Assembly: GCA_963805945.1 (NCBI GenBank)
Contig: CAWDVP010000006.1
Coordinates: 448,001-512,000 of the forward strand
Direction: 5' to 3'
DNA: 64,000 bases
From: Vulcanimicrobiota bacterium
GTDB lineage: Bacteria; Vulcanimicrobiota; Vulcanimicrobiia; Eremiobacterales; Eremiobacteraceae
Position numbers and translations under genes: made by a program. Positions 1,446 through 57,565 of the stretch are shown here, in pieces. The notes under the pieces are model-generated. The model worked only from the letters and a program-made list of their open reading frames with translations. It had not been told where the DNA came from and did not search any database. Within the stretch, counting starts at the first letter, position 1; the number at the start of each line of letters is the position of its first letter.

Positions 1446-1472
1446 GTAGGGGTCGATCTTCAGATCGACCCT
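1446..1472 (+). repeat. GTAG-type REP-like hairpin (copy A)
   Basis: GTAG-GGGTCGATC-TTCA-GATCGACCC-T; near-identical to copies at 9043, 18675 and 18710. Confidence 0.85.
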
Positions 1473-1489
1473 CCCTGGACCACGACGAA

Positions 1490-1515
1490 GGGACGACCGA
1501 AAGGTTGTCCCTTAC
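1490..1515 (-). repeat. REP-like hairpin variant (copy B), inverted partner of copy A
   Basis: Minus strand GTAA-GGGACAACC-TTTC-GGTCGTCCC; same 9+4+9 geometry with one mismatch. Confidence 0.65.
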
Positions 1516-2417
1516 ATTTTGGTCGCAAGCGCGCGGCGCAGGCTGCCGCTGTGTGAGGCGAGCAGCGCACGCGCCGTCGCGACGTCGCAGACGCGGCGCA
1601 GCATGACCACGGATTCTTTGACACGACCGCCGCTCGCGGCGAGCGCCCTGGCGGCTTCTTCTTCTGTTGCCCCAGCGAGCAGCATCGTGATGCGGAGCGC
1701 TCTGGCGCGCAGCTTCGCGTTCGCAGCCGCGACGTCCACCATGAGATTGCCGTGCACCCGGCCCAGCTTGACCATCACGGCCGTGCTGATCGTATGGAGC
1801 GCCATCTTCTGCGCGCTCGCCGCCTTCATACGCGTGGAACCGGCGATCACTTCCGCGCCGGTGCGCAAGACGATGGGTATCTGCACAGCGCTCGCGAGCG
1901 GCGTACGTTCGCTATTGGTCACGCCGATCGTCAGCGCGCCGGCGGCCTGGGCCGCGCGAAGCGCGCCGAGCACGAAGGGCGCCGCTCCGCTCGCCGAGAG
2001 CCCGATCACCGCGTCTGCGGCCCCAATCCGCGCGGCCGCGACCTCCGCCGCCCCGGCCGCCGCATCGTCCTCCGCGCCTTCGACCGCTCCGGCGACTGCC
2101 GCGCTGCCGCCCGCGATGTGCGCGACGACGAGTTCGCCGGCGGAGAACGTCGGACCGATCTCGGCCGCGTCGAGGACCCCGAGCCGCCCGCTCGTGCCGG
2201 CGCCGAAATAATGCAGCGTGCCGCCGGCGCCAAGGCGCTGCGCGATCGCATCGACCGCGGTTCCGATGACGTCGAGCTCGCGCTCGACCGCCCATGCGGC
2301 TCTCCGATCCTCGTCGTTGATGCGATGCAGCAGTTCGTGCGTGTCGAGCAGGTCGAGGTCGGCCGACGACGGGTTGGCGGCCTCGGTGAGCGGCAGCTCC
2401 TCCATCACCGGCGCCAC
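1512..2417 (-). CDS. murQ: N-acetylmuramic acid 6-phosphate etherase
   Basis: GAGTSGRLGVLDAAE, EGAED, GSTRMKA and GRVHGNLMVDV motifs; adjacent to anmK. Start may be ATG 2405. Confidence 0.95.
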   Translation of the reverse strand: MAPVMEELPLTEAANPSSADLDLLDTHELLHRINDEDRRAAWAVERELDVIGTAVDAIAQRLGAGGTLHYFGAGTSGRLGVLDAAEIGPTFSAGELVVAHIAGGSAAVAGAVEGAEDDAAAGAAEVAAARIGAADAVIGLSASGAAPFVLGALRAAQAAGALTIGVTNSERTPLASAVQIPIVLRTGAEVIAGSTRMKAASAQKMALHTISTAVMVKLGRVHGNLMVDVAAANAKLRARALRITMLLAGATEEEAARALAASGGRVKESVVMLRRVCDVATARALLASHSGSLRRALATKM

Positions 2418-2421
2418 CGCA

Positions 2422-3600
2422 TCAGGTTTGCCATATGCCGCGCATCAGCAACGCGAAGTTCTTGCCGGGCGCGATGGTGCCCATCACCACGGGATGGCGG
2501 GCTCCGGTCGCCGACGGCAGGTTGTTGGCGCGGCCGTGCAGCGCCTCGTACCCGAGCACGGCGAACGCCATCGCCTCCTTCGCGTCCACCGGCATGCCGA
2601 ACGCGTCCGAACGCTCGATGACCGCGCGCACCGAGCGCTTGCTCAGCTCTTCTTCGAGCGCGGTCATCAGCGCGCGATTATGCACGCCGCCGCCCGAGAC
2701 CACGAGCAGCGCGCAATCGCGCGGCACGGCGGCGGCGATGGTGCGCGCGGTAAGCGTGGTGACGGTGGCGATCAAATTCGGTCCCGTGACGCCGAGATTA
2801 GCGGCGCGCTGGAACACATCGCCGGCATAGGCCTCGCCGAACTCCTCGCGTCCGGTTGACTTGGGCGACGGGCGCCGGAACCACGCGTTCTCCATGAGCT
2901 CGTCGAGCAGCACCTCGGACACGCGGCCGCTCAGGCCGATGGCACCACCGCGATCGTAGCGCTGCACGCCATGCGTCTCGAAGCGCACGCATGCGTCGAT
3001 GAGCATGTTGCCCGGGCCGGTGTCGAACGCCCGCACATGCTCCGGGCCGCATCCCGCGGGCAGCCACGTCACGTTGGCGATCCCGCCGATATTAAGCGCC
3101 ATGCGGCTCTCGGTGGGGCTCGTGAGCAGGAGGTGATCGACGAACGGCACGAGCGGCGCGCCCTCACCGCCGGCCGCGACATCGGCGACGCGGAAGTCCC
3201 CGACGCTCGTGATGCCGGTGGCCTCGGCGATGATCGCGGGCGAACCGATCTGCAGGGTGGCGCGCGTCTCCGTGCTGCCCGTCGTCATATGGTACAGCGT
3301 CTGACCGTGCGAGGCGATCGCGTGAACGCCGCTGAGTTCGATGCTGTTGCGCTGCGCGAGCCGCAGCGCCGCTTCCGCGAACGCATCGCCGACCCGCACG
3401 TTGAGCGCGCAGACGTCGCGCGTGCTGCCCGTCCGCGGCGGCAACGCCGACTCGAGCGCGGCGCGCAATTCCGTCGCATAGGGGACCGTCGCGTGGCAGA
3501 GCAGCGCGACGTCGAGCGTATCGCCGTGGCGCTCGACGTCCACCGCCGCGGCGTCGATGCCGTCGAGCGACGTGCCCGACATCAGCCCGATGATGCGCAT
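2422..3600 (-). CDS. anmK: Anhydro-N-acetylmuramic acid kinase
   Basis: IGLMSGTSLDGID, SHGQT, DFRVADVAAGGEGAPLVP, NIGGIAN, FDTGPGNMLID, KSTGREEF, KEAMAFA. Confidence 0.97.
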   Translation of the reverse strand: MRIIGLMSGTSLDGIDAAAVDVERHGDTLDVALLCHATVPYATELRAALESALPPRTGSTRDVCALNVRVGDAFAEAALRLAQRNSIELSGVHAIASHGQTLYHMTTGSTETRATLQIGSPAIIAEATGITSVGDFRVADVAAGGEGAPLVPFVDHLLLTSPTESRMALNIGGIANVTWLPAGCGPEHVRAFDTGPGNMLIDACVRFETHGVQRYDRGGAIGLSGRVSEVLLDELMENAWFRRPSPKSTGREEFGEAYAGDVFQRAANLGVTGPNLIATVTTLTARTIAAAVPRDCALLVVSGGGVHNRALMTALEEELSKRSVRAVIERSDAFGMPVDAKEAMAFAVLGYEALHGRANNLPSATGARHPVVMGTIAPGKNFALLMRGIWQT

Positions 3601-55867: not shown

Positions 55868-55997
55868 GGATTCACGGCCTCCTGGAGAGATCGATGCGCG
55901 ATGCATGCGGTGAAATGGAGAACTCCTAGATTTTCTCTTTTCCCCGAAAACGCCTGCATTCGAGGTTCTCCCCGCGCGGGGATTGAAAGGCCGCTTC

Positions 55998-56630
55998 ATG
56001 CTGTCCACATCGCCCGTCGACGAATACGCCCGCAAGCTGAGCTCGAGCGATCCGACGCCCGGCGGCGGCAGCGCCAGCGCGGTCGTCGGCGCGATGGGGG
56101 CGAGCCTGGTCAGCATGGTCGCGCGGCTCACCGAGAAGTCGCCCAAGTTCGCCGATATCGCGTCGCGCATGCGCGCGATCGCGGAGGAGGGGCAGCAGCT
56201 CAGCGCCGCGTTCATCGCCGCGATCGACGAGGACGTCGCCGCGTTCGATAAGGTCTCCGCGGCCTACAAGCTTCCGAAGGCGTCCGAACAAGAACAACAG
56301 GCGCGCAAAGCTGCCATCGCGGCGGCCCTCACCGGCGCCACCGACCCGCCGCTGCGCGTCGTCGAATTCTGTTTGCTCACCGCCCGGCTTGCGGTCGAAC
56401 TCGTCGAGGCCGGCAACCCGAACGCGATCAGCGATGCCGGCTGCGCCGCGCTCTTCGCGCACGCCGCCGCCGAGGGCGCGGCGCTCAACGTGCGCATCAA
56501 CATCAAATCCCTTGGGGATGAGAAACGCGCCGCGGCGTATGAAACCCGCCTCGCGGACATGCTCGCGCAGATCGGGCTGCTCGCCGACGTCGCGGCTTCG
56601 AAGACCGGGCGCGCGGTCGCACGGAGCTGA
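55998..56630 (+). CDS. fchA: Methenyltetrahydrofolate cyclohydrolase, FTCD C-terminal family
   Basis: [36 protein letters not shown]. Confidence 0.85.
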
Positions 56631-56638
56631 TCACACCG

Positions 56639-57499
56639 ATGCCGGGTCGATCGCTAGAGGGGCGGACGCTCGCCGCCCAGATCCGCGAGCATGTCAGCGA
56701 GCGCGCGCACGCGTTGCGCGCGCGGGGCGTCACGCCACGTTGCGAGATCTTCATCGGTGAAGGCGATCCCGAAGGCGCGTACTACGGCGATAGTCTGCGC
56801 AAGGTCGGCGACAAGGTCGGCGTGGCGATACACGTCAGCGTCGTCCCCATGAGCGAGGGCACCGGCGGTTTCGTCGGTGCGGTCGAGCGCGCGGCGCGCG
56901 ACGACGCCGTGCACGGCGTCCTGGTGCAGCGGCCCTTGCCGAAACCGTTCGATCTCGGCGCGGTGAGCCGCGTTATCCCGGTGGACAAAGACGTCGACGG
57001 CGCGAGTCCGCTCTCGTTAGGCCTGCTCGCGCAAGGCACGCCGCATTTCGTGCCCGCGACCGCGGCTGCTGTCGTCGAAGTGCTGCGCCAACCCGGACTG
57101 CCGGCGCTCGAGGGTGCGCATGTAGTCATGCTAGGCCGCTCGGCGGTGGTCGGAAAACCGGTGGCGGCGCTGCTCACGGCCGCTGACGCCACGGTGACGC
57201 TGTGCCATTCGCGCACGCGCGATCTCGCCGCGCTGTGCCGCGGCGCGGATATCGTCGTCGCGGCGATCGGCAAGCCGCGCTTCGTCGGCGCGGCGATGAT
57301 CAAGCCCGGCGCGACGGTGATCGACGTCGGCACGAATCTCGTCGACGACAAGGTCGTCGGCGACGTCGACATGGATGCGGTCATCCAGGTCGCCGGCGCG
57401 GTGTCGCCGGTACCCGGCGGGGTAGGCGTCGTCACGACGTCGCTGCTGCTGCGCCACGTCGTCACCGCGGCTGAGGACGCCAACCCAGCGCAACGCTAG
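56639..57499 (+). CDS. folD: Methylenetetrahydrofolate dehydrogenase (FolD family)
   Basis: HGVLVQRPLP, KDVDG, GRS.VVGKP, TLCHSRT, VIDVG, GDVD, PVPGGVG. Confidence 0.93.
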   Translation: MPGRSLEGRTLAAQIREHVSERAHALRARGVTPRCEIFIGEGDPEGAYYGDSLRKVGDKVGVAIHVSVVPMSEGTGGFVGAVERAARDDAVHGVLVQRPLPKPFDLGAVSRVIPVDKDVDGASPLSLGLLAQGTPHFVPATAAAVVEVLRQPGLPALEGAHVVMLGRSAVVGKPVAALLTAADATVTLCHSRTRDLAALCRGADIVVAAIGKPRFVGAAMIKPGATVIDVGTNLVDDKVVGDVDMDAVIQVAGAVSPVPGGVGVVTTSLLLRHVVTAAEDANPAQR

Positions 57500-57565
57500 T
57501 AGCCGAGCTGCGCTCGGGCACTACGGTCGAATAGATTCGACCGCTCCATTCGCTCGGGCGCTACG
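57499..57565. repeat. Composite palindromic element between convergent folD and PHP genes
   Basis: Hairpin CCGAGC-TGC-GCTCGG; direct repeats CGCTCGGGCRCTACG at 57511 and 57551; central hairpin CGGTCGAA-TAGA-TTCGACCG-CTCCAT. Confidence 0.75.

Follow-up and report, generated by a model that had tools for sequence, protein, structure and literature searches.

Short REP hairpins in and between genes of an Eremiobacteraceae genome and their recurrence in the same protein loops of sister species

A 64,000-nucleotide stretch of the genome of a Vulcanimicrobiota bacterium (Eremiobacteraceae; assembly GCA_963805945.1, contig CAWDVP010000006.1, positions 448,001 to 512,000, or G000:C6:448001-512000 in our numbering; the window, below) carries short tagged hairpins, some between genes and some in frame within enzyme genes. 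Data from this genome (G000; 2.31 Mb, 82% complete, 66% GC) and from six congeners (G001-G006, five of which are at least 96% complete) suggest that these hairpins are probably short, perfect-stem repetitive extragenic palindromes (REPs) spread by HUH enzymes of the REP-associated tyrosine transposase (RAYT, or TnpA-REP) type, with insertion that is nearly blind to sequence, is filtered by selection, and hits the same tolerant loops again in sister lineages.

Copies were counted over the whole of G000 with a rule of at most five mismatches plus a pairing filter, and the reversed genome was used as control. Class 1 (GTAG-GGGYCGANC-TTYA-...) has 155 copies and class 2 (G(G/T)AG-CGGTCGAN-TTYA-...) has 169, against none of either class in the control. 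Three of ten window sites (1490, 5218 and 12211) escape this strict rule, hence the genome counts are lower bounds. Stems are 8-9 bp long and fully paired, loops are of 4 nt, and both classes are dispersed over all eight contigs. A third family, class 3 (GTAG-TGCCCGAGC-N3-GCTCGGG), gave 58 matches against 5 in the control, and 24 of the 58 are within called genes, where the peptides read VVPERSSG or PELRSGT. A preliminary description of the window had listed ten hairpins of this stem and loop size, all of which were recovered in place; its division into two classes also stands, except that the class-2 tag is G(G/T)AG and that the third family is present in the window as well.

The class-1 tag is GTAG in 140 of 155 copies and GTGG in 6. 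In class 2 it departs from the GT[AG]G form, being GGAG in 126 of 169 copies and GTAG in 21, and in G002 GTAG is found in 97 of 113. Since class 2 of G002 is mostly GTAG-tagged, and since GGAG versions flank RAYT genes of another genus (g4, see below), class 2 behaves as a REP with a variant tag. The exact consensus is present in 77 class-2 copies, and 43 compensatory pairs were counted over the class-2 stems, together with 6 G-T and 25 broken pairs; the compensatory changes noted earlier are thus real, and partly mirror subfamilies. Most copies are singlets, with 52 neighbour pairs within 120 bp among the 324 class-1 and class-2 copies and 27 same-class pairs head-to-head (19 of class 1, 8 of class 2), and dimers within genes are common (ribH, rpoC, rpsC and the gene of an NFACT-like protein). 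Insertion flanks have only an upstream AT/T in common. An Rfam search of the window returned a tRNA and nothing else.

The proposed tie to a RAYT was borne out for class 1, and the search for a hairpin-flanked Y1 HUH gene succeeded. A single PF01797 (Y1-HUH RAYT) gene is present in G000 at 119.7-120.1 kb of contig C3, on another contig than the window, and inward-facing class-1 copies flank it on both sides, forming a REPtron at G000:C3:119.5-120.2 kb. Its best match in the PDB is E. coli TnpA-REP (4ER8, E=1.3e-8), and in the alignment to 4ER8 the motifs PDHIH (HUH), YVLLNP (Y---NP) and WQHGYYDRIVR are found, with W94, Q95 and R104, which PMC6006769 names as guide-binding positions, present. 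With a profile of 19 family sequences no RAYT was found in any of the six congeners, nor was the class-1 pattern; in G001, G002 and G003 the RAYT site is empty and the flanking genes are adjacent.

No cognate RAYT was found for class 2 in the 82% of G000 available or in the six congeners, and none was found for class 3. Exact class-2 matches number 117 in G002, 139 in G005 and 149 in G006, with 5 in G001, 1 in G003 and 0 in G004, and each of 34 genomes outside the genus has at most 2. Relatives of the RAYT occur in 16 of 31 other genomes of the family (a tally that takes in the unpublished genome G016), and at 22 of the 23 family RAYT loci inspected tagged short hairpins stand on at least one side, mostly a short REP particular to that locus. 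In genus g4, the hairpins at five RAYTs are a form of class 2 that has a 9-bp stem and is tagged GGAG or GTAG, and a GGAG-based pattern (at most 2 mismatches) has 154-293 matches per g4 genome. Due to its abundance in congeners that lack a RAYT and to these related g4 REPtrons, class 2 is best read as an orphan REP family, older and genus-wide. An ancestral class-2 RAYT at the same locus was considered and rejected, as no remnant was found there in five congeners.

GGAG as a new guide, with a matching change of R104 to H or N, was rejected as a rule. In genus g4, H or N stands at this position in all three RAYTs with GGAG-tagged REPs and the GTAG sister clade keeps R, but GGAG-footed hairpins also stand beside arginine-keeping Y1 genes (80 distant loci, many without a tag call), and a simple GGAG foot occurs once, in a Chloroflexus entry, among the first 32 of 61 'GGAG' places in supplement 2 of PMC6006769. 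The GGAG tag is therefore rare, not new. In other phyla, Y1 genes flanked by hairpins with GGAG or GAAG feet were also seen, which suggests a variety of tags broader than GT[AG]G.

Placement separates the two main classes, which the preliminary description had treated alike. With genes from a dicodon caller built for this analysis (2,395 genes, 83% coding), 122 class-1 copies are intergenic, 31 lie over a gene end and 2 of 155 are inside genes, whereas 99 class-2 copies are intergenic, 14 are overlapping and 56 of 169 are inside 48 genes (in-gene share, Fisher p=5e-16); moreover, the RAYT present is that of class 1. Per kb, class 2 is about 10-fold depleted in genes (0.029 copies/kb, against 0.284 outside), and the density of class 1 is >300-fold lower inside genes than outside. 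A relaxed detector puts 6 class-1 copies inside genes, nagZ among them. One of the two strict in-gene copies is at a junction within an open reading frame (ORF) that runs across three families without relation to each other and probably does not encode a single protein: the 1042-codon frame at G000:C4:181534-184662 spans UbiD-like, prenyltransferase and ABC-binding families, with the REP at the first junction, and is probably a chance read-through. Stop codons were rejected as the factor that keeps class 1 out of genes, since 3-4 of its 6 frames are open compared with 4-5 for class 2, a difference too small for 2/155 versus 56/169; a difference in age is the likelier cause.

In called coding sequence 57 class-2 copies were found, compared with 0 in each of eight codon-order shuffles, the null that had been proposed, and with 2-3 in each of eight synonymous shuffles that preserve the peptide. 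Five open frames are used, 26 times (GRINSTAP), 11, 10, 6 and 2 times (chi-square p=4e-6), and GRINSTA(P/T) is dominant also in G002 (19/27) and G006 (14/25), two genomes of shared ancestry. We infer that this frame bias reflects selection on the peptide. An NCBIfam match at E<=1e-15 was obtained for 34 of 50 REP-bearing host proteins scanned; internal sites include CarB, ValS, RluD, a UvrD-like helicase, XdhB, PgeF, PBP1C and the NFACT-like protein, and sites in tails include RpsC, RpoC, FabH, Dxr, AtpH, LipB and PyrC. Over the 2.31 Mb, 48 genes carry a REP by the strict rule and 89 by a relaxed one (with 11 control matches), which lowers the earlier figure of roughly four genes per 64 kb to about 1.3-2.5.

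Most copies are nevertheless extragenic (153/155 of class 1 and 113/169 of class 2 are not wholly within genes), and divergent gaps are rare among their sites. Class 1 favours convergent gaps (67/153) and is on the sense strand past genes at 56 of 72 co-directional sites. A T-rich tail follows the stem in 33 of 153 class-1 and 7 of 113 class-2 non-coding copies, a pattern that does not fit intrinsic terminators, and in a terminator scan of window positions 1-20 kb the hairpin at 1490 was the sole REP site flagged.

The window sites and their host genes are as follows.
1446..1471, plus strand: class-1 REP, GTAG tag with 9-bp stem and TTCA loop; intergenic, with convergent genes either side.
1490..1515, minus strand: degenerate class-1 REP with GTAA tag; inverted partner of 1446, overlapping the stop of a murQ-like gene.
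4677..6242, minus strand: nagZ-like GH3 host gene, Pfam-confirmed.
5218..5244, plus strand: class-1-like REP, read in frame as RQGGSKDPPAT in the linker between the GH3 domains.
9043..9068, plus strand: class-1 REP, 16 bp past the stop of an M16 peptidase gene.
11398..12408, minus strand: ornithine cyclodeaminase / mu-crystallin (OCD) host gene, Pfam-confirmed.
12211..12234, minus strand: class-2 REP with GGGG tag, within a 13-codon insertion at about 12199-12237, edges uncertain.
18675..18700, minus strand: class-1 REP touching the stop of an ABC-2 permease gene, in tandem with 18710.
18710..18735, minus strand: class-1 REP in the convergent gap ahead of a thioesterase 3' end.
22524..24578, minus strand: GH57 host gene, Pfam-confirmed.
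23148..23171, plus strand: class-2 REP, worn, read in frame as RSDEPDRS within a variable loop of GH57.
31684..31706, plus strand: class-3 REP, GTAG-TGACCGAGC..., intergenic, absent from the preliminary list.
50181..51332, minus strand: hemG-like flavin oxidoreductase ORF (host gene), Pfam-confirmed, adjoining a ferrochelatase gene.
50698..50721, plus strand: consensus class-2 REP in frame, peptide GRINSTAP.
57502..57524, minus strand: class-3 REP abutting the class-2 copy, in the convergent gap past folD.
57524..57547, minus strand: class-2 REP in the intergenic gap where folD and a PHP-domain gene converge.

The ten sites first listed thus divide, as had been described, into six that are intergenic or overlap a stop and four in frame in Pfam-confirmed genes. 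The window also contains, at 42941-43156, a tandem repeat of 54-bp period inside an ORF and, at 44294-44366 on the minus strand, a tRNA gene.

Changes of length at the four coding sites were determined in alignments with congeners, as numbers of residues in the compared loop segment. Outgroup rows from the unpublished genomes G010 and G013 were also aligned, and none of the conclusions rests on them. The clearest case is OCD, with 25 residues in G000 and 12 in all five congeners compared (+13). The AlphaFold model of this protein has a predicted local distance difference test score (pLDDT) of 91.7 overall and below 50 for residues 62-72, between two beta-strands; on this model the REP is a clean added loop, predicted to be disordered. 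The GH57 segment has 25 residues compared with 20-22 in the six congeners (+3 to +5), yet it is also 25 in the REP-free G011; GH57 was matched as two pieces (query 1-275 and 303-683) in G001 and G003-G006, and as one piece in G000 and G002. The hemG segment has 26 residues compared with 21-24 in REP-poor congeners, and in G002, G005 and G006 the same loop holds their own class-2 copies in the orientation opposite to that of G000. The hemG-like ORF itself is frameshifted near codon 372 (window ~50215), and a homologous-looking C-terminus continues in another frame, which is due either to assembly error or to a pseudogene. In nagZ the REP is in the linker between the GH3 N and C domains (Pfam), but the segment of 27 residues equals that of G001 and G003 (29 in G002, 36 in G005 and G006), hence there is no net gain. 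The proposal that hairpins add peptide loops, and the orthologue comparison suggested for it, therefore hold for OCD, weakly for GH57 and hemG, and fail for nagZ. That each coding copy is in a linker or loop agrees with the Pfam linker (nagZ), the AlphaFold model (OCD) and the variable loop lengths in the alignments.

Seven more genes picked from G000 were aligned with their orthologues. The CarB loop reads RSAEVDRS in G000 (REP reversed), ERSNSFDR in G002 and WSGRI(H/Y)ST in G005 and G006, which are three frames; in G001 it is short and empty, and in G003 REP-free but long. In ValS the REP is reversed in G000 and G002 and forward in G005, and the loop is empty in G001 and G003. In RluD the REPs of the four REP-rich genomes all share one frame, and the REP-poor G001 and G003 have a worn look-alike (RTSKRDRS against RSSKLDRS); in the rluD of G005 a frameshift directly past the REP is either real damage or sequencing error. 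Sharing without a change of frame was also seen at btuF. The REP is confined to G000 in XdhB, RpsC, PgeF and NFACT, the last with +19 at one of its loops, and C1_51535 has a near-zero net length change at its REP. Over 11 class-2 loops aligned, 4 are shared, and in 3 of these 4 the frame or strand is not the same. The hemG and nagZ trees place G000 as the earliest branch within the genus, and its position is unresolved in the OCD tree; we infer that REP-poor G001 and G003 probably lost class 2.

The reciprocal comparison was based, for G002, on the first 100 matches out of 129 listed and, for G006, on most of the roughly 100 listed of 149. A relaxed filter gave 113 class-2 copies in G002 and 111 in G006, of which 27 and 25, respectively, are read in frame within genes that have an orthologue in G000. 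Of 34 internal REP loops of G002 and G006, 2 hold a G000 REP in the same frame and 8 a REP of another frame or family (counted within 20 residues; the 8 include one class-1 copy called by the relaxed rule). In three loops G000 has a class-3 copy where G006 has class 2. For comparison, 468 orthologue pairs (127,000 aligned residues) contain 42 internal indel loops without a REP in the relative, and 9 of these hold a G000 REP, a figure inflated as the REP itself creates an indel; when distinct loops at least five residues longer in G000 with a REP-free relative were considered, 5 of 13 hold a REP, a small sample. Between genes, a class-1 copy of G000 is present in 11 of 90 gaps that bear a G002 or G006 REP. 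This differs little from the background rate in gaps of 30 bp or longer (61/897 co-directional, 47/203 convergent), hence a preference of new class-1 copies for old sites is not evident. By our estimate a pool of a few hundred tolerant loops suffices for the overlap, and targeting is not required.

A mechanism of this kind has a basis in published work: according to PMC3333891, PMC8266576 and PMC3479197, TnpA-REP binds a tagged single-stranded hairpin, cuts at a nearby CT (or CA), and performs strand transfer in vitro. By analogy with this biochemistry, the RAYT would bind the tagged single-stranded hairpin, nick at dinucleotides of low specificity, and join hairpin pieces elsewhere. Insertion would be nearly sequence-blind, and selection would remove most insertions in genes. 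Survivors would lie in tails, linkers and loops and keep the frame, with a preference for GRINSTAP, a small polar peptide, and host codons may often be lost alongside the insertion, leaving the net length nearly unchanged. If tolerant internal loops number only a few hundred, the same loops would be hit repeatedly in sister lineages, in different frames and by different families; and once a family is no longer renewed, the DNA hairpin would decay to leave a drifting peptide.

Several observations weigh against this explanation. The 77 consensus-exact class-2 copies without a class-2 enzyme would suit recent activity or conversion, and that enzyme was not found in a genome that is only 82% complete. 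No clean filled/empty DNA pair was seen, and the insertion edges are blurred because congener proteins are only ~55-87% identical. As genes were called with our own caller, copies assigned to protein ends may in some cases fall beyond the real protein. Finally, a strand polarity of class 2 in G002 and G006 falls outside the explanation: over an arc of >1 Mb, copies are on one strand in 65 of 72 cases in G002 and 66 of 75 in G006, compared with 55 of 93 in G000, as mapped on shared gene order, with arc ends picked post hoc and many sites shared between G002 and G006. The arc covers about 0.99-2.18 Mb of G002:C1 and the matching G006 contigs, the polarity is independent of the direction of the nearest gene, and one arc end is near the position of the G000 REPtron. 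As causes, a replichore effect was rejected (dnaA and the flips of gene strand do not fit the arc), as were local gene direction, which does not match it, and assembly artefact, since the polarity is seen in G002 (6 contigs) and G006 (90 contigs) and 24 of 27 shared sites agree.

Alternatively, an enzyme or homology-driven conversion might prefer existing REPs, so that an old coding REP is replaced in place. Such overwriting seems possible, though we doubt it. It would account for the three CarB frames among G000, G002 and G005/G006, for the opposite orientations in valS and hemG, and for the near-zero net length change at nagZ and C1_51535; with uniform placement we estimate that well below one loop, not 8 of 34, would hold another frame or family in G000. 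In-place replacement of extragenic REPINs (inverted REP doublets) is reported in the REPORTH preprint (10.1101/2024.10.14.618302), and TnpA-REP cuts beside REPs and makes tandem copies in vitro (PMC3333891). However, indel loops with REP-free relatives hold a G000 REP about as often (the inflated 9/42), and class 1 is found in old intergenic REP gaps at near background (11/90). A bolder form, which we put forward only tentatively, is that REP turnover might be a main engine of loop evolution in the genus, with about one-third of internal loop gains borne by REPs, that coding REPs are actively overwritten in place by copies of other frames or families, so that one loop of an essential enzyme such as CarB or ValS cycles through unrelated peptides, and that the polarity is a footprint of single-stranded insertion.

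Inheritance of REP dimers present in loops of the genus ancestor, with different halves lost in each lineage, is unlikely. In-gene dimers are indeed common, G000 is basal in two gene trees, and rluD and btuF share the REP in the same frame, but such dimers cannot yield three CarB frames, nor class 3 in G000 opposite class 2 in G006 at three loops, and in G001 the loops of carB, valS and NFACT are short and hold no REP. That the hairpins are selected signals of the host in place of mobile DNA, as terminators, as stabilisers of mRNA or as a motif that binds a protein and accumulates by point mutation in the manner of uptake sequences, has very little probability. Although class 1 shows the convergent-gap, sense-strand and T-tail preferences given above, a signal role as origin is already largely refuted by the RAYT with its flanking copies and by clean gains in length (OCD +13, NFACT +19), the families are lineage-restricted, and a T tail is present in only 7 of 113 non-coding class-2 copies. 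For class 1, a secondary role in RNA is compatible with spread by RAYT enzymes too.

The closest known system is that of Opitutus terrae. In PMC3733652 (Di Nocera et al. 2013), REPs wholly inside ORFs are reported, most of them in this species, with about 70 rows of in-gene cases including single 7-residue inserts in the middle of enzymes, and flexible loops are proposed as their sites; PMC6006769 restates this. Hence the preliminary view that in-frame coding palindromes belong to the longer Rickettsia elements does not hold. As here, the GTAG-17/18/19 REPs of O. terrae described there are short tagged hairpins, single or dimeric, in frame in housekeeping enzymes with 7-30 residues; they are mostly extragenic, past genes, often providing a TAG stop, with loops and linkers proposed as tolerant, and one case of REPs of two species near the same recB site is mentioned. 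Sequences and phylum differ, however, and here the main coding family is GGAG-tagged, with no cognate RAYT found in the genus. Orthologue alignments, a shuffle null, frame bias and loop re-use are measured here beyond that report. Intragenic GTAG-REPs are thus already known, and what is added here is quantitative: how large a share of copies is coding, how often loops are re-used in another frame, and how far strands are polarised. Literature searches outside subscription journals found no paper on REPs of this lineage.

The G000 enzyme resembles TnpA-REP subclass 2.5, or group 3 RAYTs, as PMC6006769 (Quentin 2018) and PMC8266576 (Corneloup 2021) describe them: a short Y1 protein with D at the E100 position and W94/Q95/R104, short perfect stems, a tag 0-2 nt from the foot and REPs flanking the gene. 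This subclass is reported there mainly from Xanthomonads and Pseudomonads, and the likeness is by features, not by placement in a tree. Judged from PMC3116915 (Bertels and Rainey 2011) and 10.1101/2024.10.14.618302, Pseudomonas REPINs are similar in that RAYT-linked families come and go with the enzyme, and in that conserved positions switch REP type between genomes (10.1101/2024.10.14.618302); there, however, doublets account for 61% of REPs and the sites lie outside genes (PMC3116915), whereas here singlets prevail over inverted doublets and it is within proteins that the REP at a site changes. Palindromic DNA is also found in frame in housekeeping genes in the case of the Rickettsia palindromic elements (RPEs). 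RPE-1 is much longer, at ~150 bp, a long palindrome with one conserved peptide, unlike the hairpins of 24-27 bp in five reading frames described here. RPE-4/6 are short and CGTC-tagged, with no known transposase according to PMC3733652.

The route by which REPs spread in vivo is not settled, and what they do to proteins has so far been listed rather than measured. The genus offers a natural experiment: one family is young and linked to a RAYT, another is older, orphaned and one-third coding, the REP-poor relatives retain decayed remnants, and GGAG and GTAG REPtrons are live in neighbouring genera. On the bolder reading above, the strand polarity would bear on the single-stranded route of insertion. 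The G000 RAYT and class 1 form a testable enzyme-substrate pair, and the REPs map tolerant loops in core enzymes. For annotation, peptides such as GRINSTAP, ERSNSFDR, GAVEFIRP and VPERSSG in these bacteria are repeat-derived and not functional motifs.

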